Source of the DNA: an uncultured Nitrospirota bacterium
GTDB taxonomy: Bacteria > Nitrospirota > Thermodesulfovibrionia > Thermodesulfovibrionales > JdFR-85
NCBI GenBank assembly: GCA_964539375.1
Contig: CAZIIE010000003.1
Span: 1 to 38,714, forward strand
DNA: 38,714 bases
Direction of reading: 5' to 3'
This document shows, in pieces, positions 4,992-36,182 of this stretch. The position numbers were made by a program, and so were the translations under genes. Each line of letters opens with the position of its first letter. Positions within the stretch are counted from its first letter, which is position 1. The notes beneath the pieces were generated by a model. It was not told the DNA's origin. It did not search any database and saw only the letters and a list, made by a program, of their open reading frames with translations.

Positions 4992-5834
4992 TCAGTAAAG
5001 CTCCACCTCCTTTCTGTATTGTTTTAAAAGACCTCTGGTTATGGTAAAATCTTTGAAACCCTTTGATTCAATCTCGCAGACAGGCACTATCTCCAAAAGG
5101 GAGTTTGTTATAAACACCTCATCTGCCTCAAGGAGTTGCTCTTTCCTGTAAAGGCCCTCCTCCACCTCAATTCCCATGGATTTGGCAATCTCCAGGACCT
5201 TACCACGGGTGATGCCCTTAAGAATGCCAGATTCAACCGATGGGGTGTGCAGCCTTCCCCTTTTTATGAAGAACAGATTACTCACCGTGCCCTCGGTGAT
5301 AAAGCCATCGCTGTTAAGAAGGATGCCTTCAAAAAGCCCTCTGTCTGAGACCTCAAGCCGTGAAAGGATGTTATTGAGAAAGCTTATTGATTTGATATCA
5401 TAATCTTCAGGTAGTCTTGTGTTTTTTCTTTCAAGAAAGCCGACCCTTACCCCCCTTTTGTAAATTTCCTCTGATGGGGCTTCATAGGCTCTGGTGATGA
5501 TGAGTAAAGTGGGCTCACTACAGCCATCAATCTCAATGCCTCTTCCACCAGTTCCTCGGCTCAGGGTGATGCGTATGTAGGCCTCTTTTAGATTGTTCAT
5601 CTCAAGCAGTCTTTCCACAATGGAGACCATCTCAAGGGGGGACTCATTCAGGGTAATTCTGAGCTTCTGAGCAGCCCTTGAGAGCCTTTCAAGGTGTTCA
5701 CTGACCAGAAAAGGTTTGCCATTGTAAGCCCTCAGGGTCTCAAATACCCCGTCACCAAGAAGGAAACCCCTGTCGTTTATAGAGATCCGCGCATCTTTTT
5801 CCCTTATTATGTTACCGTTAAGATAGATGTACAT
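4992..5834 (-). CDS. Class IV (fold type IV) PLP aminotransferase, IlvE/Dat/PabC family, 280 aa
   Basis: DRGFLLGDGVFETLRAY, EHLERLSRAA and the length fit the BCAT / D-aminotransferase / ADC-lyase family. The subfamily cannot be decided by eye. Confidence 0.75.
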   Translation of the reverse strand: MYIYLNGNIIREKDARISINDRGFLLGDGVFETLRAYNGKPFLVSEHLERLSRAAQKLRITLNESPLEMVSIVERLLEMNNLKEAYIRITLSRGTGGRGIEIDGCSEPTLLIITRAYEAPSEEIYKRGVRVGFLERKNTRLPEDYDIKSISFLNNILSRLEVSDRGLFEGILLNSDGFITEGTVSNLFFIKRGRLHTPSVESGILKGITRGKVLEIAKSMGIEVEEGLYRKEQLLEADEVFITNSLLEIVPVCEIESKGFKDFTITRGLLKQYRKEVELY

Positions 5835-5947: not shown

Positions 5948-6970
5948 ATGTCTGAAAGGAGGCTGAGGTTAACAGAGAAGGTAAAGGCTGCAGGCTGAGC
6001 TGGCAAGCTTGGTCCAGCGGAGCTGGACAGCCTTATTGCCTCCTTGAAGAGTTCGCCTGAAAGTGGCGTAATAGTGCCACCTGGTGATGACGCAGGGGTG
6101 CGGCTTGTTGATGAGGAGCAAGCCCTTGTGGAGACCGTTGATGTTATAACACCTCTGGTGGATACACCCTATCTTTTTGGAAGGATAGCTGCTGCTAACT
6201 CACTGAGTGATATCTACGCAATGGGTGGAAGGCCCTTTACTGCCCTTTCTATACTGGGCTACCCCTCCTGTGATTATCCGGTTGAGGTTATAAAAGAGAT
6301 AATTGAAGGGGCAAACCATACCCTTAAAGAGGCAGGGGTTAGTCTGCTTGGTGGACACTGTTTTGAGGACACAGAGATAAAGTTTGGTCTTTCTGTAAGT
6401 GGATTTATTAACAGGGATTTTATACTGAGGGTAAACACACCCAGAGAGGGCAACATCCTTGTACTTACAAAGCCTGTTGGCACAGGCGTGTTGACCACTG
6501 CGCTTAAAGGGGAAAGGGTAGGTGAGGATGATTTAAAGGAGGTTATCACCTCAATGTGCATGCTTAATAACAGGGCATCTGAGGCTGCATTAAAGGCAGG
6601 GGCTACAGCCTGCACTGACCTTACAGGTTTTGGACTGCTTGGGCATGCCTCTAATATGTTGAGCTCTGGAGGGCTTGACCTGGAGATAGACTCAAAAAGA
6701 GTGCCCCTTTTTGAGGGGGTTATGGATTTTGCTGAAAGGGGAATGATTCCTGAAGGGGCTTACAGAAACAGACAGTTTTATTCAGAGCGTGTCCAGTTTG
6801 AAGACACTGTTGATGAGACAATGAGGCTTGTGCTCTTTGACCCCCAGACCTCGGGTGGACTCCTTATAGCCCTGAATGAAGAGAACCTGGACCTGTTTAA
6901 AGCGGAGCTCCTTCAATGCTGGGTAATTGGAAGGTTTAAAGCAGGAAAGGGAAAAATCAGGGTTTTTTAA
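5948..6970 (+). CDS. selD: Selenophosphate synthetase SelD, selenocysteine-containing (in-frame TGA at 5996-5998 = residue 17)
   Basis: The frame of the track ORF (6044..6970) extends upstream to ATG 5948, giving MSERRLRLTEKVKAAG-U-AGKLGPAELD. This matches the E. coli SelD N-terminus [23 protein letters not shown], with U at Cys17 and K at Lys20. The remainder is AIR-synthase-like (GDDAGV, SDIYAMGG, DLTGFGLLGH). Confidence 0.85.
5999..6026 (+). promoter_or_regulatory. Candidate bacterial SECIS hairpin for selD
   Basis: Immediately 3' of the TGA: GCTGG-caagcttggt-CCAGC (5999-6018, loop contains GGU). An alternative hairpin is CCAGC-gga-GCTGG (6014-6026). Confidence 0.4.
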
Positions 6971-7884
6971 ATGCTCAGTAACTTCTGATAAGGATAGTTC
7001 ATTAAATAGTCAAGGAAATCCTCGGCGGCGTAAGAGAGAACCTCATTTTTCTGAGTAATCAGTGTGAACTCCCTCATGAGCTTTTCCTCTTTGAAACTAA
7101 GAAGCTTCAGGGTGCCGAACTTTGCCTCCTTCAGTGCTGCCCACCTTGATATAATGGCAAGCCCCATCCCGTTTTCTACAGCCTGTTTTATTGACTCGGT
7201 GCTTCCAAGAATCAGGGTTATCTTCAAGTTCTGGGTGGTGATACCATGTTTTGAGAGATATTTCTCAATAACCTGCCTTGTGCCAGAGCCCTCCTCTCTG
7301 ATTATCAAGGGTTCGTTGGTGATACTAAAGATAGACACTTCCTTGCGCTTTGCAAGGGGATGCTGGGGGGGAAGAGCAAGGCAGAGCTCGTCCTCAATCA
7401 GTTTTTTGGTTTTAATCTTCTGTCTTGAAACCTCACCCTCAACAAGTCCAATATCAATATTGCCACTGTTTAAAAGCTCCACAACCCTCTTTGTATTTCC
7501 GACCAGAACATGTATCTTTATCTTGGTTCTTGATTTCCTGAAGTCTGAAATCACCCTTGGAAGTAGATAATTGCCGATAGTGGTACTTGCACCTATTGAG
7601 ATACTACCCTTGACAAGGCCCGTCAGCTCACCAATCTCCTTTTCTGCTGAGGCATAAAGACCGAGAATGTGCTTTGCGTATTTGTAAAGGACCTCGCCAG
7701 CTGGGGTAAGGGTAACTGCATTGCTTGAGCGGTCAAAAAGCTTTGTTTCATAGAGCTCTTCAAGGGCCTGTATCTGCAGGCTCACTGCAGGCTGGGTGAG
7801 ATGAATTATCTCAGAAGCCTTTGAAAAACTCCTTGTCTCTGCTACTGTGCAAAAGACCCTTAATTTGTGGTCGTCCAATGACAT
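6967..7884 (-). CDS. LysR-family transcriptional regulator, 305 aa
   Basis: N-terminal wHTH LRVFCTVAETRSFSKASEIIHLTQPAVSLQIQALE plus a LysR substrate-binding domain. Its stop codon overlaps the selD stop (TTAA, 6967-6970). Confidence 0.85.
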   Translation of the reverse strand: MSLDDHKLRVFCTVAETRSFSKASEIIHLTQPAVSLQIQALEELYETKLFDRSSNAVTLTPAGEVLYKYAKHILGLYASAEKEIGELTGLVKGSISIGASTTIGNYLLPRVISDFRKSRTKIKIHVLVGNTKRVVELLNSGNIDIGLVEGEVSRQKIKTKKLIEDELCLALPPQHPLAKRKEVSIFSITNEPLIIREEGSGTRQVIEKYLSKHGITTQNLKITLILGSTESIKQAVENGMGLAIISRWAALKEAKFGTLKLLSFKEEKLMREFTLITQKNEVLSYAAEDFLDYLMNYPYQKLLSI

Positions 7885-29009: not shown

Positions 29010-30980
29010 CTAAAGGTGGATATGAAAGGTGCGAATTATGTAGTTAACAAATCCTCCAACGGAAAACGCAAGAAAGAATACAATAGTGGTTACAGCAAAG
29101 GCAACCCTGGGGCCTCGTTCCTTGATGATCATAAAGAGGTTTGCCAGGCAGGGGATGAAGAGCGTGATGGTTATAAGGCTTATAAGGGTCTGAAGCTGGC
29201 TGAGTTCACCCCTCTGAAAAAGGGCAAAAAGACCTGCAGCACCGTAGTCTCTCCTTAAAAAGCCCAGTATGAAAAAACCTGCTGTCTCCTCAGGGAGCCC
29301 AAGCAGTCCCTTTACAAGAGGTGAGGCACCTATTTCAATGTATCTTAACAGACCAGTTTTATCAGCAAGAAAAAGCACCAGTGTGCCGAGTATGAAAAGG
29401 GGGACAGCCTCCTTGAGGTACCACTCAATACGCCCAAGGGTTTTCAGAAGGACATTTTCAAGCCGAGGAACCCTCAGGGGGGGAATCTCAAGAAAAAACT
29501 CGGTCTTTTCTCCAGGCACAACCTTTGAGGCAAGATAGCCCGAGACCAGAAGCACCGAAAGGACGGTTAATGCCCATATTGAGGCAGCCTTGAGTGAAAG
29601 GGCTCCAAACATGCCCAGTATCACCCCTATCTGGGCAGAGCAGGGTATCGCAAGGGCAAGCAGGAAGGTGGCTATTATTCTGTCCCTTCTGGTCTCAAGA
29701 ATCCTTGTTGTCATCACAGCCATGGTGCCACAGCCAAGGCCCAGTATCATCGGCAGGATGGCCTTGCCATTCAGCCCAATCAGGTTGAATGCCCTGTTTG
29801 AAAGAATGGCAAGGCGGGGAAGATAGCCGCTGTCTTCAAGGATTGAGAAGGCAATAAAGAAGGTTGCAGTAATGGGTAGTATAATAGCAACGGAGTAGGT
29901 CAGGGCAACGGTAATCAGTCCGTACTGACCGACCAGCATATCCTTAAAAAATTGAACAGGCAGTATCAGGTCAACCAGTTTTGTAAACATTGGATTAAGG
30001 TATCTGCCAAATATTACCCCCTCAAAAAAATCCACCATCGTTCCTGCACCAAAGACACCGACAAATTCATAAACCAGAAAAAGGACAACCAAAAGCACAG
30101 GTATCCCCCACAGGGGGTGCATGCTTGTCCTCTCAAGCCACCTGAAGAGTTGTCCTCCCTCAGCCTGAATTCTCTGAACCGTCCTGTTAATTATTTTTTC
30201 AACCAGCTCAACTCTTGTTTCATTTATTATCTGGGCAAGGGGAAGTGAAAAGTTAGACTGGCATTCATCTCTGAGTTTTTCAATGTTTTCTATCTCCTCT
30301 ATAGACAGATTCGCCTTTAGCCATGCCTTTAGGCTTTCATCTCCTGCAAGTATCATCACAGCCACAGAACGCCTTGATATGCCAGAGGCTGGCAAAAGGG
30401 AAGATATCTTTTCTATATATTTTTCTATCAGAGGATGATAGGTAAATAAAAGGGGTTCAGAGTTGTAGGGAGCTACCAGTTCATCCTTCAGTTGTTTAAT
30501 GCCCTTTCTCCTTGTGGCTACAGTGCCCACTACCTTTATGCCAAGGACTTCAGAGAGCCTCAATTTGTCAATCCTGATTCCCCTGTCAAGGGCCTCATCT
30601 TCCATGTTAAGGTCCAAGATAAGGGGTAGTTTCATCTCAAGAAGCTGCACAGTAAGCAAAAGGGTGCGTTTTAGATTCTTAGAGTCAGCCACCTGAACAA
30701 CCTTGAAGGGCCTTTCCTGAAGCAGTATATCCCTGGTTACTCTTTCATCCTCACTCATCGGAATCAGGCTGTTTACCCCAGGAGTGTCAATAAGTAGGAA
30801 TCTCTCCCCCTTTAGGCTGATATTACCCCTTGAAAGCTCAACAGTTGTGCCAGGGTAGTTGGATACAGTTACATACCTGCCCGTAAGAAGCCCGAATATT
30901 ACACTTTTACCAACATTCGGGTTTCCAACAAGCACAATGGTTTTTATCGTTGAGGCGACCTTTTCTTCTGAGTTGTGCAT
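29010..30980 (-). CDS. feoB: Ferrous iron transporter FeoB
   Basis: N-terminal G domain (GNPNVGKS, DTPG) plus a polytopic membrane domain. 656 aa. Confidence 0.95.
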   Translation of the reverse strand: MHNSEEKVASTIKTIVLVGNPNVGKSVIFGLLTGRYVTVSNYPGTTVELSRGNISLKGERFLLIDTPGVNSLIPMSEDERVTRDILLQERPFKVVQVADSKNLKRTLLLTVQLLEMKLPLILDLNMEDEALDRGIRIDKLRLSEVLGIKVVGTVATRRKGIKQLKDELVAPYNSEPLLFTYHPLIEKYIEKISSLLPASGISRRSVAVMILAGDESLKAWLKANLSIEEIENIEKLRDECQSNFSLPLAQIINETRVELVEKIINRTVQRIQAEGGQLFRWLERTSMHPLWGIPVLLVVLFLVYEFVGVFGAGTMVDFFEGVIFGRYLNPMFTKLVDLILPVQFFKDMLVGQYGLITVALTYSVAIILPITATFFIAFSILEDSGYLPRLAILSNRAFNLIGLNGKAILPMILGLGCGTMAVMTTRILETRRDRIIATFLLALAIPCSAQIGVILGMFGALSLKAASIWALTVLSVLLVSGYLASKVVPGEKTEFFLEIPPLRVPRLENVLLKTLGRIEWYLKEAVPLFILGTLVLFLADKTGLLRYIEIGASPLVKGLLGLPEETAGFFILGFLRRDYGAAGLFALFQRGELSQLQTLISLITITLFIPCLANLFMIIKERGPRVAFAVTTIVFFLAFSVGGFVNYIIRTFHIHL

Positions 30981-30998
30981 GATAGGAAAAATGCTTAT

Positions 30999-31048
30999 TG
31001 AAAATTATTATCAATATCATTTTAAGAGATACTCGTAGTAAAAGTCAA
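30999..31048 (-). promoter_or_regulatory. feoB promoter with a Fur box over the predicted transcription start
   Basis: TGAAAATTATTATCA (30999-31013) matches the 7-1-7 Fur consensus TGATAATNATTATCA at 14 of 15 positions. On the minus strand: -35 TTGACT (31043-31048), 18 nt, -10 TAAAAT (31019-31024). Confidence 0.55.
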
Positions 31049-31058
31049 ACAGGGGAAT

Positions 31059-31083
31059 TGATTTCAGATTTACGATTTCTGAT
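31059..31083. repeat. AGATTTC-type short-period repeat (same type as 1948-1985)
   Basis: gatttcagatttacgatttctga, directly 3' of the tauE-like stop. It has the same orientation and position relative to the gene as the copy at the vapC 3' end. Confidence 0.5.
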
Positions 31084-31086
31084 AAA

Positions 31087-31980
31087 TCATCTGAAAAACT
31101 GTAATATATACTTCAGGGCTACTATCAATATTATCAGAGAAAGTATGAATTTTATTGTCCGCTCGGGCATATGTTTCTGCGCTCTTGCACCTAAGTACAT
31201 TCCCAATAGTCCACCGATACCGAAAAGTATTCCAAGAAGCCAGTCAGGAGGCGCTGTAACTCCACCTTTTAGGGGCAAAAGACTGTAAAAGGCAAGTCCT
31301 GAAATGGATGTCATAAAGGTGCCCATAAGCACTGCACCGGAGACCACATAAACAGGTAGGTTCAGAACACTGACCAGAAAGGGAGCAACTATAGAGCCCC
31401 CGCCAATACCGTAAATTCCACCTATTACTCCTACAAACAAAGAAAGAGAAAATACCAGCGGAACACTGAAGGATACCCTCTTACCTGAAAAGTCAAAGGA
31501 CACCCTGTTTAACGAGTAATGGACATTGTCTATCCTGAATGAAGAAGTCGTAGATGTAGGTCTGGGTGTATTTTTCTTCAGGCTTAACAATAGCCTGTAG
31601 CCGATATACAGGAGTACGATGCCAACAAAGAACTTGAAATTCCTTGGCTCTGGCAGATACCTTATTCTGATGATATATCCAACCAGCACGCCAGGCAGTG
31701 TTCCAAGGACTATGCATGCCGTAAGGGACCAGGCCATTCTGCCTTCCTTTATGTATCTGTAAACCCCTCCTGGAATTCCCACCAGATTGTAAAGGAAATT
31801 TGTTGAGCTTACCGATGGTGAGGTAAACCCAAGAACACTCATCTGAAAGGGCAGCAGAAGGAAAGCCCCAGAGACCCCTGCCATTGAGGTGAAAAAGGAT
31901 ATGCTAAAGGCAACAAGGGGTGGCAAAAACCAGTAGGTCTTGATACCGGCTACAGGGAAATAAATCTTAAGTAGTTCCAT
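31087..31980 (-). CDS. TauE/SafE (DUF81) family anion exporter-like membrane protein
   Basis: 297 aa, about 8 TM, internal duplication with G-rich helices (GIGGGSIVAPFL, GVSGAFLLLPF). Confidence 0.75.
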   Translation of the reverse strand: MELLKIYFPVAGIKTYWFLPPLVAFSISFFTSMAGVSGAFLLLPFQMSVLGFTSPSVSSTNFLYNLVGIPGGVYRYIKEGRMAWSLTACIVLGTLPGVLVGYIIRIRYLPEPRNFKFFVGIVLLYIGYRLLLSLKKNTPRPTSTTSSFRIDNVHYSLNRVSFDFSGKRVSFSVPLVFSLSLFVGVIGGIYGIGGGSIVAPFLVSVLNLPVYVVSGAVLMGTFMTSISGLAFYSLLPLKGGVTAPPDWLLGILFGIGGLLGMYLGARAQKHMPERTIKFILSLIILIVALKYILQFFR

Positions 31981-32326
31981 GATGCTTTAACCTCGCTCTT
32001 TTTTTTCTTTTAAGTTTCTGTTTTCTCTTTTTTTCAATAAGCCTTTCCCTCTGGCTCTTTCTGCCAAGAAGAAGCTGCTCAATACGGTCAGCAAGCTCCT
32101 TTCGGGCATAATATCTGTTAAGGTTCTGTGACCTTGTTCTCTGGCATTTAATCTCAATGCCTGTGGGAAGGTGTTTTAAATATACACAGGTTGAGCGTTT
32201 GTTTACATTCTGCCCCCCATGTCCACCTGAACGGACAAACTCCTCCTTTAGGTCCTGCTCCTTTATGCCAAGGGAGTCAAGCCTTTCCTTAAGTGCCTTC
32301 AGTTTTTCAGGCCCTATGGCAGGCAT
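31967..32326 (-). CDS. arfB: RF-1-domain peptidyl-tRNA hydrolase, ArfB-like ribosome rescue factor
   Basis: GGQ motif (SGGHGGQNVNKRST) and a basic C-terminal tail KKRKQKLKRKKRARLK. 119 aa. 14-nt overlap with the next gene. Confidence 0.65.
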   Translation of the reverse strand: MPAIGPEKLKALKERLDSLGIKEQDLKEEFVRSGGHGGQNVNKRSTCVYLKHLPTGIEIKCQRTRSQNLNRYYARKELADRIEQLLLGRKSQRERLIEKKRKQKLKRKKRARLKHHGTT

Positions 32327-32395
32327 GTTGTGCTAATGTCCTTTTATTCTTTTTCGGTCTCGTAATATAATATATTAAGCAAAATAAAAATTTGT

Positions 32396-34513
32396 ATGGG
32401 ATTTCTTGAATATATAAAAAGAGACTTTCAGGCCGTCTTCGAGCGTGACCCTGCTGCAAGAAGCAAGCTGGAGGTCCTTTTTACCTATCCTGGCTTTCAT
32501 GCAATAGTTCTTCACCGAATAAGCCATGCCCTTTACAAAGCAGGAGTGCCCTTTATCCCGAGGCTCCTTTCTCACATCAGCAGACTTTTAACAGGTATAG
32601 AGATTCATCCTGCAGCAAGGATTGGACCTGGTTTCTTTATTGACCACGGCATGGGAGTGGTTATTGGAGAGACCACCGAGATAGGTGAGAACTGTCTTCT
32701 CTACCAGGGCGTAACCCTCGGGGGTACTGGAAAGGAGAAGGGGAAACGCCATCCGACCCTCGGAAACAATGTGGTGGTGGGTGCAGGGGCAAAGGTGCTC
32801 GGTGCCATAAGGATAGGGGATTATGTTAAGATAGGTGCCAATGCTGTGGTTTTGAGGTCAGTGCCTGACTACAGCATAGTGGTTGGAGTGCCAGGCAGGG
32901 TAATTAAGAGGAAGGTCTTTAGGGTTACTGACCTTGGTGTGGAGGAAGCCCTTGACCACATTCATATGCCTGACCCGATAGAGGAGAAGTTCAGGGCACT
33001 TGAGGGGCACATTGCTCAGCTTGAAAGAAAGATAGAGAAGCTTGAAGGTAAGGGAGGAAAGATGAAGATCTACAACACCATGAGCCGAAAAAAGGAAGAG
33101 TTTGTTCCTGTTGAAGAGGGTAAGGTAAAGATATACGCCTGTGGTGTTACGGTCTATGACCTCTGCCATATTGGACATGCAAGAAGTGCGGTTGTCTTTG
33201 ATGTTATAAGAAGGTATTTCCTTTACAGAGGTTACGATGTAACCTACATAAGAAACTTCACCGATATTGATGACAAGATTATAAAAAGGGCAAATGAAGA
33301 GGGTATTCCCTGGCATGAGGTGGCAAGAAAATACACCGAGGAGTATTACCGTGACATGGATGCCCTTGGGATTGGAAGGGCGGATATTGAGCCGAAAGCA
33401 ACCCAGTACATTAATGAAATGATAGATATGATAAAGGGGCTTATTGAAAAGGGCTATGCCTATGTGGTTGATGGAGATGTGTTTTTTTCAGTTGACCGGT
33501 TTAAAGAGTATGGAAAGCTCTCAAAACGTTCAATGGATGAGTTGAAGGCTGGTGCAAGGGTAGAGGTTGATACCAGAAAGAGAAACCCTCTGGATTTTGC
33601 CCTCTGGAAATCCTCCAAAGAGGGTGAGCCATCCTGGGAAAGCCCCTGGGGACCTGGAAGACCTGGCTGGCATATAGAGTGCTCGGTGATGAGCATGAAA
33701 CACCTGGGCGAGACCTTTGACATCCATGGTGGTGGTGCAGACCTGATATTCCCCCATCATGAAAACGAGATAGCCCAGTCTGAGGCGTTCACTGGAAAGC
33801 CCTTTGCCCGTTACTGGGTGCATAATGGCTTTATCACCATTGCAAAGGAGAAGATGTCCAAGTCCCTGGGTAACTTCTTTACCATAAGGGATATCCTTGA
33901 TAAATTTGACCCTGAAGTGGTGAGGATATTTTTATTATCCACCCACTATCGTAGCCCAATAGAGTTTTCTGAAGAGCAGCTGAGAGAGACAGAGGCTGGT
34001 GTGGACAGGTTTTACTCCACGGTTATGAGAGTTGAGGGCTATCTTCAGAGGATGTCAAAGAAACAGAGGGAGGTACCTGAGCAGAAGAGGATGGAGGAGC
34101 TTATCGCCTCATTCAGAAAGAGGTTTGAGGAGGCGATGGATGACGACTTTAACACAGCCCTTGCCATTGGGCACATCTTTGAGATGATAAAGGAGATAAA
34201 CCGATACCTTGATTCAAAACCCTCGGGGCAGAAGGCAGAAGAGACGATAAACAGGGCAATGGATGAGCTCAGGGAGGTCTGCCAGGTGCTTAACATCTTT
34301 CAGAGAAGCCCTAAACAGTGGCACCTCTCTTTGCTTAAGACCAGAAAAATCAACATCACCGAGGAAGAGATTAACAGTTTGATAGCCCAGAGGCAGGAGG
34401 CAAGGAAGAACAAAGACTGGCAGAAGGCTGATGCTATAAGGGATGAGTTACTTCAGAAGGGCATAGTGCTTGAGGATACCCTCCAGGGAACTGTCTGGAG
34501 GGTCAAGATATAA
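32396..34513 (+). CDS. In-frame fusion: serine O-acetyltransferase (aa 1-222) joined to cysteinyl-tRNA synthetase (aa 223-705)
   Basis: N-terminus: AVFERDPAARS plus hexapeptide repeats and LDHIHMPDP (CysE). From ATG 33062: MKIYNTMSRKKEEF, HIGH (CHIGHARS), KMSKS (CysS). No stop between the two. GGGAGG (33052-33057) lies 4 nt before the internal ATG. Confidence 0.85.
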   Translation: MGFLEYIKRDFQAVFERDPAARSKLEVLFTYPGFHAIVLHRISHALYKAGVPFIPRLLSHISRLLTGIEIHPAARIGPGFFIDHGMGVVIGETTEIGENCLLYQGVTLGGTGKEKGKRHPTLGNNVVVGAGAKVLGAIRIGDYVKIGANAVVLRSVPDYSIVVGVPGRVIKRKVFRVTDLGVEEALDHIHMPDPIEEKFRALEGHIAQLERKIEKLEGKGGKMKIYNTMSRKKEEFVPVEEGKVKIYACGVTVYDLCHIGHARSAVVFDVIRRYFLYRGYDVTYIRNFTDIDDKIIKRANEEGIPWHEVARKYTEEYYRDMDALGIGRADIEPKATQYINEMIDMIKGLIEKGYAYVVDGDVFFSVDRFKEYGKLSKRSMDELKAGARVEVDTRKRNPLDFALWKSSKEGEPSWESPWGPGRPGWHIECSVMSMKHLGETFDIHGGGADLIFPHHENEIAQSEAFTGKPFARYWVHNGFITIAKEKMSKSLGNFFTIRDILDKFDPEVVRIFLLSTHYRSPIEFSEEQLRETEAGVDRFYSTVMRVEGYLQRMSKKQREVPEQKRMEELIASFRKRFEEAMDDDFNTALAIGHIFEMIKEINRYLDSKPSGQKAEETINRAMDELREVCQVLNIFQRSPKQWHLSLLKTRKINITEEEINSLIAQRQEARKNKDWQKADAIRDELLQKGIVLEDTLQGTVWRVKI

Positions 34514-34517
34514 TTGC

Positions 34518-35429
34518 ATGGAACTAATCACCATCGTATCAGACGAAGATGATACCAACAAGACCCTGGCGGAGTTCCTTGAGGGGTTTAATATAAATTT
34601 TATAAAAAACAAAACAGAGATTATTGACAGTATTTACAACAACCCTCCCACATTGATAATTTTTAACGGTGGCCTCAAGTACAGAGACTACATAAGAACT
34701 ATAAGGGATGACCAGGTGTTCAGCCACCTTCCCATTATTCTGCTCCTTGATGAAAGGGAGTTCGTAAAGCAGTGGAAGGAGTTGCCTGCCGATGACTTTA
34801 TAACCAAACCCCTTCAGAGGGAAGAGTTCATAATGAGGCTTTACCTGTCTATTGAGCGGTCAAGGCGAGTGGTTGAGGTGAACCCTCTTACCATGCTTCC
34901 AGGAAATACCCCCATTATAAAGGAGGTCCAGGCAAGGCTTGACAGGGAGGAGGAGTTTGCCCTTGCCTATGCTGACCTGGATAACTTCAAGCCCTTTAAC
35001 GATAAGTATGGCTTTTCCCGTGGTGATGAGGTTATTAAGATGACAGGAAGGCTTATCACAAATACGGTTAAGCTTTATGACCCCCATAATTTTTTTGTTG
35101 GCCATATCGGTGGTGATGATTTTGTTTATATAACATCAATTGAAAGAGTTGAACAGACCTCCAGAGAGATTATAGAAAACTTTGACGAAATCATCCCTTC
35201 CTTTTACGACCCTGAAGACCGTGAAAGGGGTTACATCATATCCTTTGGAAGGGACAGAAAGGAGAGGCATTATCCCCTGCTTACCCTTTCCATAGGAATT
35301 ACCCTTAACAGGGCATGGTTCAGACACTATGGTGAGATAAGCTCTGCAGCCACAGAGGTGAAGAGCTATGCTAAGAGTTTTGAGGGAAGTAACTATTTTA
35401 TAGACAGGCGGAGGTATAGCAGGGATTAG
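34518..35429 (+). CDS. Pseudo-receiver plus divergent GGDEF-domain protein (GGDDF motif), 303 aa
   Basis: Start at ATG 34518 (MELITIV). REC-like fold with Asn in place of the phospho-acceptor Asp (TLIIFNGG), while DFITKP is retained. GGDEF-like domain: LTMLPGN, ADLDNFKPFNDKYGFSRGDEVI, HIGGDDF. No RxxD I-site. Confidence 0.75.
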   Translation: MELITIVSDEDDTNKTLAEFLEGFNINFIKNKTEIIDSIYNNPPTLIIFNGGLKYRDYIRTIRDDQVFSHLPIILLLDEREFVKQWKELPADDFITKPLQREEFIMRLYLSIERSRRVVEVNPLTMLPGNTPIIKEVQARLDREEEFALAYADLDNFKPFNDKYGFSRGDEVIKMTGRLITNTVKLYDPHNFFVGHIGGDDFVYITSIERVEQTSREIIENFDEIIPSFYDPEDRERGYIISFGRDRKERHYPLLTLSIGITLNRAWFRHYGEISSAATEVKSYAKSFEGSNYFIDRRRYSRD

Positions 35430-36148
35430 CCCCTCTTGCGCTGCCTTAAAACCTCATAAACAATCACTCCTGTTGCAACAGAGACATTAAGGGAGTTAAT
35501 CTTTCCAAACATTGGGATGCTTATAAGGCGGTTGCACTGTTTTTTAACACTTGCCCTGATACCCCTTCCTTCTGAACCAACCACAAGGGCAAGGGGGACC
35601 CTGAAGTCTGCCTCCCAATAGGAGAGCTCTGCCTCTGAAGAGGCACCATAGAGCATAACCCCCTCGGATTTTAGAAAATCCATTGCGTGCTTTATGTTGG
35701 GCACGGCTATTAGGGGGATGTGTTCAATAGCCCCTGCAGAGGCCTTTGCTACGGTGGGGCCACCTGCAGAGCGTCTCTTCTGAACGACCACAGCATGAAC
35801 CCCAGCAACTTCGGCTGTTCGGATTATTGCACCAAGGTTATGGGGGTCTTCAACCTCATCTATCAGGAGGTAAAAGGGGAGGGTGTCCTTGTTTTTGCTG
35901 ATAGCAGGTAGGTCTTCCAGAGTGTATCTTGGAAGTTCAGCGGTCCTTGCCGCCACGCCCTGATGGGCCTTTGGAAAGGCTCTGAAAAAGGCCTTTTCAA
36001 CAAGCTGGAACTGGATGCCCTTAGCTCGGGCTAACCTGATAAGGCCTTCCCTTTTGGAATCAGAAAGACCTTTGTAAATATAGATGCTGAAGACCTTTCT
36101 TCCCGACCTGATTGCCTCTTTTACAGGGTTTATGCCATATATCCACAT
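35426..36148 (-). CDS. rlmB: SpoU/TrmH-family RNA 2'-O-methyltransferase (RlmB-like)
   Basis: IYGINPVKEAI N-terminal domain, DPHNLGAIIRTA, GSEGRGI, IPM.G...SLNVSVA. 240 aa. Confidence 0.8.
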   Translation of the reverse strand: MWIYGINPVKEAIRSGRKVFSIYIYKGLSDSKREGLIRLARAKGIQFQLVEKAFFRAFPKAHQGVAARTAELPRYTLEDLPAISKNKDTLPFYLLIDEVEDPHNLGAIIRTAEVAGVHAVVVQKRRSAGGPTVAKASAGAIEHIPLIAVPNIKHAMDFLKSEGVMLYGASSEAELSYWEADFRVPLALVVGSEGRGIRASVKKQCNRLISIPMFGKINSLNVSVATGVIVYEVLRQRKRG

Positions 36149-36182
36149 CTTTAGCCCGAAGATGAGAGAAGTATTAAGAGCC

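Follow-up and report, generated by a model that had tools for sequence, protein, structure and literature searches.

An in-frame fusion of serine acetyltransferase and cysteinyl-tRNA synthetase in Thermodesulfovibrio-like Nitrospirota, with a probable internal start retained at the junction

In an uncultured Nitrospirota bacterium (Thermodesulfovibrionales, JdFR-85), one gene encodes, as a single polypeptide, both the enzyme for the first step of cysteine synthesis and the one that charges tRNA-Cys. The gene lies in a 38,714-nucleotide stretch of DNA (GenBank assembly GCA_964539375.1, contig CAZIIE010000003.1, positions 1 to 38,714 of the forward strand), which was analysed at its full length and is called the window below. 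From 32396 to 34513 on the forward strand, a single frame of 705 codons plus a stop codon, uninterrupted by any internal stop, encodes a serine O-acetyltransferase (SAT, CysE) followed by a cysteinyl-tRNA synthetase (CysRS, CysS). That this fusion is genuine and conserved across its lineage is, in our judgement, virtually certain. The junction between the two modules retains a Shine-Dalgarno (SD) sequence and an ATG at the position of the ancestral cysS start. Our preferred reading, with a probability of roughly 0.6, is that the gene would yield two products from two starts, namely the fusion and a free CysRS. The parts of the gene and of its 5' region are listed here.

32396 to 34513, + strand: cysE::cysS fusion open reading frame (ORF), based on the frame, Pfam and NCBIfam matches and more than 120 full-length homologous clusters
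32396 to 32908, + strand: short-type serine O-acetyltransferase domain, aa 1-171, a left-handed beta-helix (TIGR01172, Hexapep and AlphaFold2 model)
32909 to 32974, + strand: low-confidence tether, aa 172-193, holding the LDHxHxPDP motif (AlphaFold2 confidence and motif conservation)
32975 to 33043, + strand: helix with heptad a/d positions, aa 194-216, a putative trimeric coiled coil (AlphaFold2 and hydrophobic alignment columns)
33047 to 33058, + strand: GKGG hinge codons, aa 218-221 (G[KR]GG in 90 of 120 homologues; low model confidence, below 50, at 218-220)
33052 to 33057, + strand: putative internal SD GGGAGG, with the core GGAGG at 33053-33057 (constraint at a four-fold site; duplex energy -11.3 kcal/mol)
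33062 to 33064, + strand: internal ATG, Met223, the ancestral cysS start codon (aligned with the cysS ATG of unfused relatives; Met in 109 of 120 homologues)
33062 to 34513, + strand: complete cysteinyl-tRNA synthetase module, aa 223-705 (TIGR00435 and alignment with E. coli CysRS)
32362 to 32374, + strand: conserved -10 element GTAATATAATATA, with TATAAT at 32366-32371 (identical in three related loci, L163, L165 and L166)
32372 to 32395, + strand: A/T-rich stretch from the -10 element to the ATG, which lacks an SD and implies a leader of about 17 nt (anti-SD energy and Rfam scan)

The fusion gene, its distribution and its origin

Both modules were assigned to their families with high scores. 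The CysE equivalog model TIGR01172 matched aa 7-168 with 247.6 bits (cut-off, 210.65), and the CysS equivalog model TIGR00435 matched aa 223-702 with 616.8 bits (cut-off, 340), covering profile positions 1-464 of 466. In Pfam, the first third of the protein showed Hexapep (PF00132) and a partial SATase_N match, and the remainder tRNA-synt_1e, DALR_2 and CysS_C. Only positions 71-103 of the 105 in the SATase_N profile were matched, and the long N-terminal domain of hexameric-type CysE is therefore missing. The CysE half also matches an EpsC-type model. The initial annotation had described a complete short-type CysE joined to a complete CysS within 705 codons, a description that the frame check and the two exceeded cut-offs bear out. 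Every motif it named is present: DPAARS, LDHIHMPDP, the coiled-coil end ...LERKIEKLEGKGGK, the CysS start MKIYNTMSRKKEEF, HIGH (aa 258-261, 33167-33178) and KMSKS (aa 486-490, 33851-33865).

The same architecture is found well beyond the window. A search of 5.8 billion proteins recovered at least 120 clusters (90% identity) of 705-720 aa with this domain order and with identities down to 66%. The clusters come from NCBI, JGI, ENA and Logan, and those with a name belong to Nitrospirota, Thermodesulfovibrionales or Thermodesulfovibrio metagenome-assembled genomes (MAGs). In public annotation these proteins appear only as 'cysteine--tRNA ligase' or 'hypothetical'. A metagenome scan with CysE-side peptide patterns, which leaves loci unselected for the junction, combined with alignment of the linker, gave 80 loci, all of them uninterrupted fusions. 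A contig scan with CysS-side patterns gave at least three complete Nitrospirota fusion loci (L001-L003, from complete GTDB species genomes) and one incomplete locus (L011). Thus, all 83 of the 83 complete loci are fused, and a stop codon between the modules was found neither in the window nor in any of these relatives. The homology comparison suggested in the initial annotation therefore shows the fusion to be shared by its relatives.

These counts also bear on the simplest objection, that an error in sequencing or assembly removed a stop codon or introduced an indel and so merged two genes in the window contig. Between unfused relatives and the fusion the difference can be a single stop codon, and a one-base error could in principle mimic the fusion. 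However, assemblies from NCBI, JGI, ENA and Logan all contain the same open frame, in over 120 protein clusters, 83 independently assembled loci are fused and have a conserved linker, and the junction DNA is common to the window and its close relatives L163-L166. The artefact is effectively refuted already, and we give it next to no credence.

Among 1.84 billion representatives at 50% identity, one fusion (P0121) was found; the next matches are ordinary CysRS proteins of about 480 aa with no more than 57% identity. Other long CysS proteins (P0211, P0232, P0265, P0230, P0219, P0224, P0155, P0153 and P0147) were considered as further fusions and rejected, as they have no hexapeptide domain. Independent CysE-CysS fusions in other phyla were likewise rejected, the same-frame pairs in Clostridia, Omnitrophota and L010 all being separated by a stop codon. 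Because the fusion representative stands alone and the other long CysS proteins are without a hexapeptide domain, the fusion must have arisen once and is confined to one Nitrospirota (Thermodesulfovibrio-like) family.

The separate genes offer a view of the probable starting point. In Clostridia (L004, L006-L009 and others), Omnitrophota (L005 and L065) and L010, cysE and cysS are adjacent and distinct. The stop codon of cysE lies 0-12 codons before the cysS ATG in these unfused relatives, as in ...LEDK*MKIFNT of L008, and the SD of cysS is embedded in the last codons of cysE. Further, the C-terminus of the unfused CysE in Clostridia and Omnitrophota already carries the LDxxHxPDP motif and the heptad helix. 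T-box leaders (RF00230) were located directly 5' of unfused cysE in L004, a Clostridiales MAG (5375-5587, 123 bits), and in L069, Caproiciproducens galactitolivorans (5406-5609, 102 bits). The closely spaced stop codon and the SD inside cysE indicate that the fusion arose through loss of the stop codon between two tightly coupled genes in an ancestor of the Thermodesulfovibrio-like Nitrospirota. In the close relatives of the window, a SpoU/RlmB methylase gene lies directly downstream of the fusion on the same strand; in the Bacillus operon, rlmB comes after cysS.

Two proposed translation starts

At the 5' end of the fusion gene, no SD was found in front of ATG 32396 (anti-SD duplex energy, +1.6 kcal/mol), and other genes of the window carry strong SDs. 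Rfam scans detected neither a T-box nor any other family in the whole window, and no T-box in the fusion loci L002, L003, L089, L127 and L140. TATAAT at 32366-32371 ends 24 nt before the ATG and implies an SD-less leader of about 17 nt. The element GTAATATAATATA that contains it is identical in the window, L163, L165 and L166 while the flanks have diverged, and the 24-nt distance is kept in the sub-clade of the window. A generic consensus scan did not call a full -35/-10 promoter at this TATAAT. These results agree with the initial annotation, which had noted the absence of a T-box, of a long leader and of a 5' SD and had given the same TATAAT position.

Among 64 non-redundant relatives, a TATAAT matched at five or more of its six positions ends 5-9 nt before the ATG in 44, with a mode of 7 nt and a background of mostly 0-2 per offset. 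Such spacing corresponds to the geometry expected of leaderless transcripts, and an SD-less 5' start with a short leader or none appears to be the design of the whole family. An extended -10 element (TGnTATAAT) was considered and dropped; the common motif TGTATAAT has no spacer base. The same geometry is seen elsewhere in the window, at 4992-5834 (- strand; GATATAAT plus 6 nt) and 6967-7884 (- strand; TGTTATAAT plus 5 nt), and leaderless transcripts may be common in this organism.

The second candidate start lies at the junction, where GGGAGG (33052-33057) is followed after 4 nt (AAAG) by ATG 33062-33064, as the initial annotation had placed them. Met223, encoded by this ATG, falls at the alignment position of the cysS ATG in unfused relatives. 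The class Thermodesulfovibrionia uses the canonical anti-SD ACCUCCUUU (PMC10783764). The DNA of the junction was compared in 76 non-redundant fusion loci, in which codon 223 is a start codon (ATG, GTG or TTG) in 44 and a non-start codon (ATA, ATT, ATC, CTG, CTA or TTA) in 32. Constraint on the start codon itself, considered because only M, V or L occurred in the first 120 homologues, was rejected: non-start codons are present in distant fusions, and the position is equivalent to Leu2 of E. coli CysRS. The restriction to M, V and L reflects the need for a hydrophobic residue and not for a start codon.

Constraint of another kind was found in the clade of the window, defined by G[KR]GG plus a start codon (n = 30). 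The codon of Gly220, which completes GGAGG, is GGA in 26 of 30 members against a background GGA use of 28%. Its third base ranks first in conservation among 84 invariant four-fold columns, for which the median top-base frequency is 0.43 and the 90th percentile 0.60. As a control, other invariant Gly-Gly dipeptides were unbiased, and four-fold sites were saturated (median pairwise identity, 0.32). A synonymous null model of all seven codons was weakly significant per sequence (p about 0.02-0.5), because the amino acids GKGG already force most of the SD, and the column-wise four-fold test was used in its place. In this clade, then, an SD and a start are kept beyond what the protein needs; in other clades they have been lost.

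The phylogenetic pattern points in the same direction. In a neighbour-joining tree rooted with unfused CysS, the SD plus start is found on the deepest fusion branches, which marks this state as ancestral and actively retained. Loss of the start codon is always accompanied by loss of the SD (L085; L099/L100 plus a clade with Ile at this position), and the SD and ATG appear to behave as a functional unit that is useful yet dispensable. Two loci, L126 and L134, have Ile (ATA) at the position of Met223 together with an intact AAGGAGG, and an ATG is found one codon upstream (...AAGGAGGAAATG ATA...), which may reflect a one-codon shift of the internal start. Another SD-like site in the same frame, of near-junction strength (-11.8 kcal/mol), lies in the C-terminal region of CysRS at 34273-34288, with GGAGG at 34273 and GTG at 34286.

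We infer internal initiation from one strongly constrained synonymous site together with this phylogenetic pattern, and several observations weigh against it. Within the window, the junction is unremarkable: the purine-rich ORF contains nine GGAGG, and ATG 33062 ranks second in SD strength among 42 in-frame start-like codons. Significance of the internal SD from the single sequence was rejected on these grounds, and the case for it has to come from the relatives. Conservation of the ATG proves nothing by itself, the position of Met223 being a hydrophobic one equivalent to E. coli Leu2. At least six times the family has lost or weakened its internal start; one case is a large clade that carries Ile and GGTGAAAC (LEGKGET-I-K), and in L003, L094, L139 and L160 the ATG stands without an SD. 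The 4 nt that separate SD and AUG are near the minimum usually seen. The internal start is thus dispensable and, in some lineages, could be a slowly decaying relic.

Alternatively, only the fusion of about 80 kDa might be made, with GGAGG and ATG surviving either as a relic or as an SD-like pause at the domain boundary that lets CysE fold or trimerise before CysRS emerges. We consider this doubtful, though it deserves serious attention. The fusion is intact in one large clade and in several smaller lineages from which the SD, the start or both are missing, the residue at 223 is accounted for by structure, and SD-like motifs are common in the ORF. In addition, LEGKG is kept where the SD has gone, which indicates constraint on the hinge at the protein level. 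However, a relic fails to explain why the third base of GGA should be the top four-fold site across saturated divergence. A pause site, for its part, predicts neither the joint loss of SD and start (in L085, and in L099/L100 with the Ile clade) nor the upstream ATG in L126 and L134, where AAGGAGG is kept.

On balance, the internal start is probably used in the clade of the window, which would give free CysRS besides the fusion. The initial annotation had proposed both that the junction keeps the ancestral CysS start and that the locus could make the fusion and free CysS. The first proposal holds for the clade of the window, where SD and ATG are kept and the SD is under synonymous-site selection, but does not hold in general, given the repeated losses. 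The second is, through selection at the synonymous site, the best-supported reading for the same clade, but it does not extend to clades in which the internal start is absent. Because such clades exist, the fusion polypeptide seems able to supply CysRS alone where the internal start has gone, if there is no second copy.

In the proposed working of the locus, one mRNA would carry two starts. The SD-less 5' AUG would give SAT-CysRS; in the window it has a leader of about 17 nt, and in most relatives probably none. In the clade of the window, GGAGG at 33053-33057 and AUG 33062, still held by selection, would give free CysRS. The full-length product would consist of a short-type SAT, expected to be a trimer, a three-heptad helix that probably forms a trimeric coiled coil, a Gly-rich hinge and a complete CysRS. 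With a weak or unusual 5' start and a strong internal SD, more housekeeping CysRS than SAT would be expected per transcript, and this arrangement would also replace the T-box control of the Firmicutes relatives.

Catalytic residues, assembly and the CysE C-terminus

Both halves of the protein look catalytically intact. The SAT residues H84 and E69, which correspond to H158 and D143 of E. coli, are found in 121/121 and 120/121 family members, respectively, and the GGTGK motif of the substrate loop is invariant in an alignment of 60 sequences (A3). The beta-helix core shows homology with SATs of solved structure (4HZD, E = 6e-45). The solved SATs all carry an additional 80-130 N-terminal residues, a helical domain that is missing here, which makes this CysE the short, Bacillus-like type. 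Similarly, the CysS module aligns from end to end with E. coli CysRS 1LI5 (508 bits), and its Zn ligands C249, C429, H454 and E458 (E. coli C28, C209, H234 and E238) are invariant in 121 sequences, with HIGH and KMSKS likewise invariant or almost so.

An AlphaFold2 model of the fusion (mean predicted local distance difference test score, pLDDT, 84; predicted template modelling score, pTM, 0.67) shows two confident domains, the SAT domain having a pLDDT of about 80-90. The connection between them consists of a disordered tether (pLDDT <50 at 165-197), a helix at 194-216 and a flexible GKG hinge (pLDDT <50 at 218-220). The LDHxHxPDP motif is conserved in fused and unfused relatives, and the heptad a/d positions F199, L202, I206, L209, I213 and L216 are hydrophobic across the 121 sequences. 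Since beta-helix acetyltransferases are trimers, the likely assembly is a three-stranded coiled coil bearing three CysRS arms.

An alternative view of the N-terminal module is that it has ceased to be a working SAT and serves CysRS as an appendage for regulation or oligomerisation, for example as a sensor of cysteine or acetyl-CoA, or just to hold it as a trimer. The missing N-terminal helical domain, the match to the EpsC-type model and the lack of a nearby cysK would all fit such a role. Yet the score exceeds the trusted cut-off of the cysE equivalog, His84 and E69 are invariant or nearly so, GGTGK is invariant in A3, and the same short-type CysE occurs free-standing and under T-box control in Clostridia. 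We regard a purely accessory N-terminal module as highly improbable.

The C-terminus of CysE deserves separate mention. In the fusion it runs covalently into CysRS, and the free C-terminal Ile needed for docking to CysK is absent. Unfused CysE proteins mostly end in K, E or R; only L004 and L052, both Clostridiales, end in ...FENGAGI, a canonical-looking tail for CysK docking. Because most unfused relatives do not end in Ile, canonical docking was probably already out of use before the fusion. The GKGG hinge of the fusion occupies the position equivalent to the GAGI tail, and the hinge might descend from a GxGI tail. The initial annotation had suggested that fusion would bury the CysK-docking tail. 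It is true that the free end of CysE is gone, but the coiled-coil extension predates the fusion and most unfused proteins end in K, E or R, which weakens the suggestion. No cysK was found near the gene in any of the contexts examined, nor was any conserved linkage to sulfur genes.

Gene neighbourhood, known systems and implications

The fusion gene is monocistronic, with different neighbours in different lineages. On its 5' side in the window (29010-32326, - strand) are genes encoding FeoB (29010-30980), a protein of the TauE/SafE sulfite-exporter family (31087-31980) and an ArfB-like protein (31967-32326) with an RF-1 domain and a GGQ motif, the last overlapping the TauE/SafE gene by 14 nt. 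This block is syntenic in L163-L166, and the TauE/SafE gene is near the fusion only in the sub-clade of the window. On the 3' side, a 1.64-kb segment (34517-36156) holding a GGDEF gene (34518-35429, + strand) and the SpoU/RlmB gene (35426-36148, - strand) is inverted relative to the close relatives. In four loci from three of these (L163/L164, L165 and L166), the order is fusion (+), SpoU (+), GGDEF (-), HDOD (-). By blastn, window 34517-36156 matches L163 6848-5207 with 75% identity. The segment is not flanked by long inverted repeats and could be either a real inversion or a misassembly. Elsewhere in the family, four to five tRNA genes lie about 0.9 kb downstream of the fusion (L002 8650-9134; L003 8657-9100); none is present in the window. 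An IS91-family Y2 transposase and a phage-type integrase are encoded directly 3' of the fusion gene in the P0121 contig (L162 12615-14654).

The closest known system is the cysE-cysS operon of Firmicutes, which stands under a T-box leader and in B. subtilis has the order gltX-cysE-cysS-mrnC-rlmB. The two share a short-type cysE directly upstream of cysS, the C-terminal HxPDP and coiled-coil extension of CysE, a cysS SD inside the 3' end of cysE and, in close relatives of the window, a downstream SpoU/RlmB gene. In contrast, the fusion has no stop codon between the modules and thus encodes one polypeptide, lacks a T-box or other Rfam leader, has an SD-less or leaderless 5' start and is monocistronic. 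In the canonical cysteine synthase complex, a CysE hexamer binds CysK through the free C-terminal Ile of CysE. The acetyltransferase chemistry is presumably the same in the fusion and the beta-helix core is homologous, whereas the fused CysE is short, lacks the N-terminal helical domain that builds the hexamer and has no free C-terminus.

Fusions or paralogues of aminoacyl-tRNA synthetases (aaRSs) tied to amino-acid metabolism include the eukaryotic Glu-ProRS, HisZ-HisG and the archaeal SepRS/SepCysS/SepCysE complex. The present protein likewise links an aaRS to another enzyme, in this case from the pathway of its own amino acid. Where it departs from these is in the nature of the partner, which catalyses the first step of cysteine synthesis and is neither a second aaRS nor a tRNA-dependent enzyme of biosynthesis. 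Direct channelling between the two modules would need CysK, because O-acetylserine, the product of SAT, is not a substrate of CysRS. In-frame internal starts that yield two isoforms are established in bacteria for infB (IF2 alpha/beta), clpB and cheA. As in those genes, a conserved in-frame SD and AUG predict a full-length and an N-terminally truncated protein; unlike in those cases, the shorter product would be an entire ancestral enzyme and its start a retained gene start, not a newly evolved one, with its use predicted here. MprF-LysRS fusions have also been described (PMC5388404). A full-text literature search, including PMC5389517 and PMC5388404, found no paper describing a CysE-CysS fusion, in line with the initial annotation, which was aware of no characterised covalent fusion of this kind. 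Taken singly, both modules are typical representatives of the CysE and CysS families, and the architecture is, as far as we have found, undescribed.

A more far-reaching proposal is that the locus forms a self-contained unit for cysteine supply and demand. In such a unit, the weak leaderless or SD-less start would give trimeric SAT-CysRS, joined through the coiled coil, the strong internal SD would give free CysRS, and the CysRS module would couple SAT allosterically to the state of cysteine or of tRNA-Cys charging. We hold this to be speculative and, as a whole, improbable. If true, the T-box riboswitch and the CysK-based complex of other bacteria would both give way to coupling at the protein level, mediated by CysRS as it binds cysteine or uncharged tRNA.

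The fusion joins an aaRS covalently to the committed enzyme for the biosynthesis of its own amino acid, and the joined form is fixed across a bacterial lineage. It has a practical consequence for genome interpretation. Because annotation names only a 'cysteine--tRNA ligase', cysE seems to be absent from the genomes that carry the fusion, and Thermodesulfovibrio-like sulfate reducers could be wrongly scored as cysteine auxotrophs in metabolic reconstructions. The family also appears to preserve a series of stages, from separate coupled genes through a fusion with a putatively working internal start to an obligate fusion. It is thus a natural system in which operon neighbours turning into a multidomain protein, and the decay of an internal start, may be followed, and it opens a route to testing physical or regulatory coupling of cysteine synthesis with tRNA-Cys charging.

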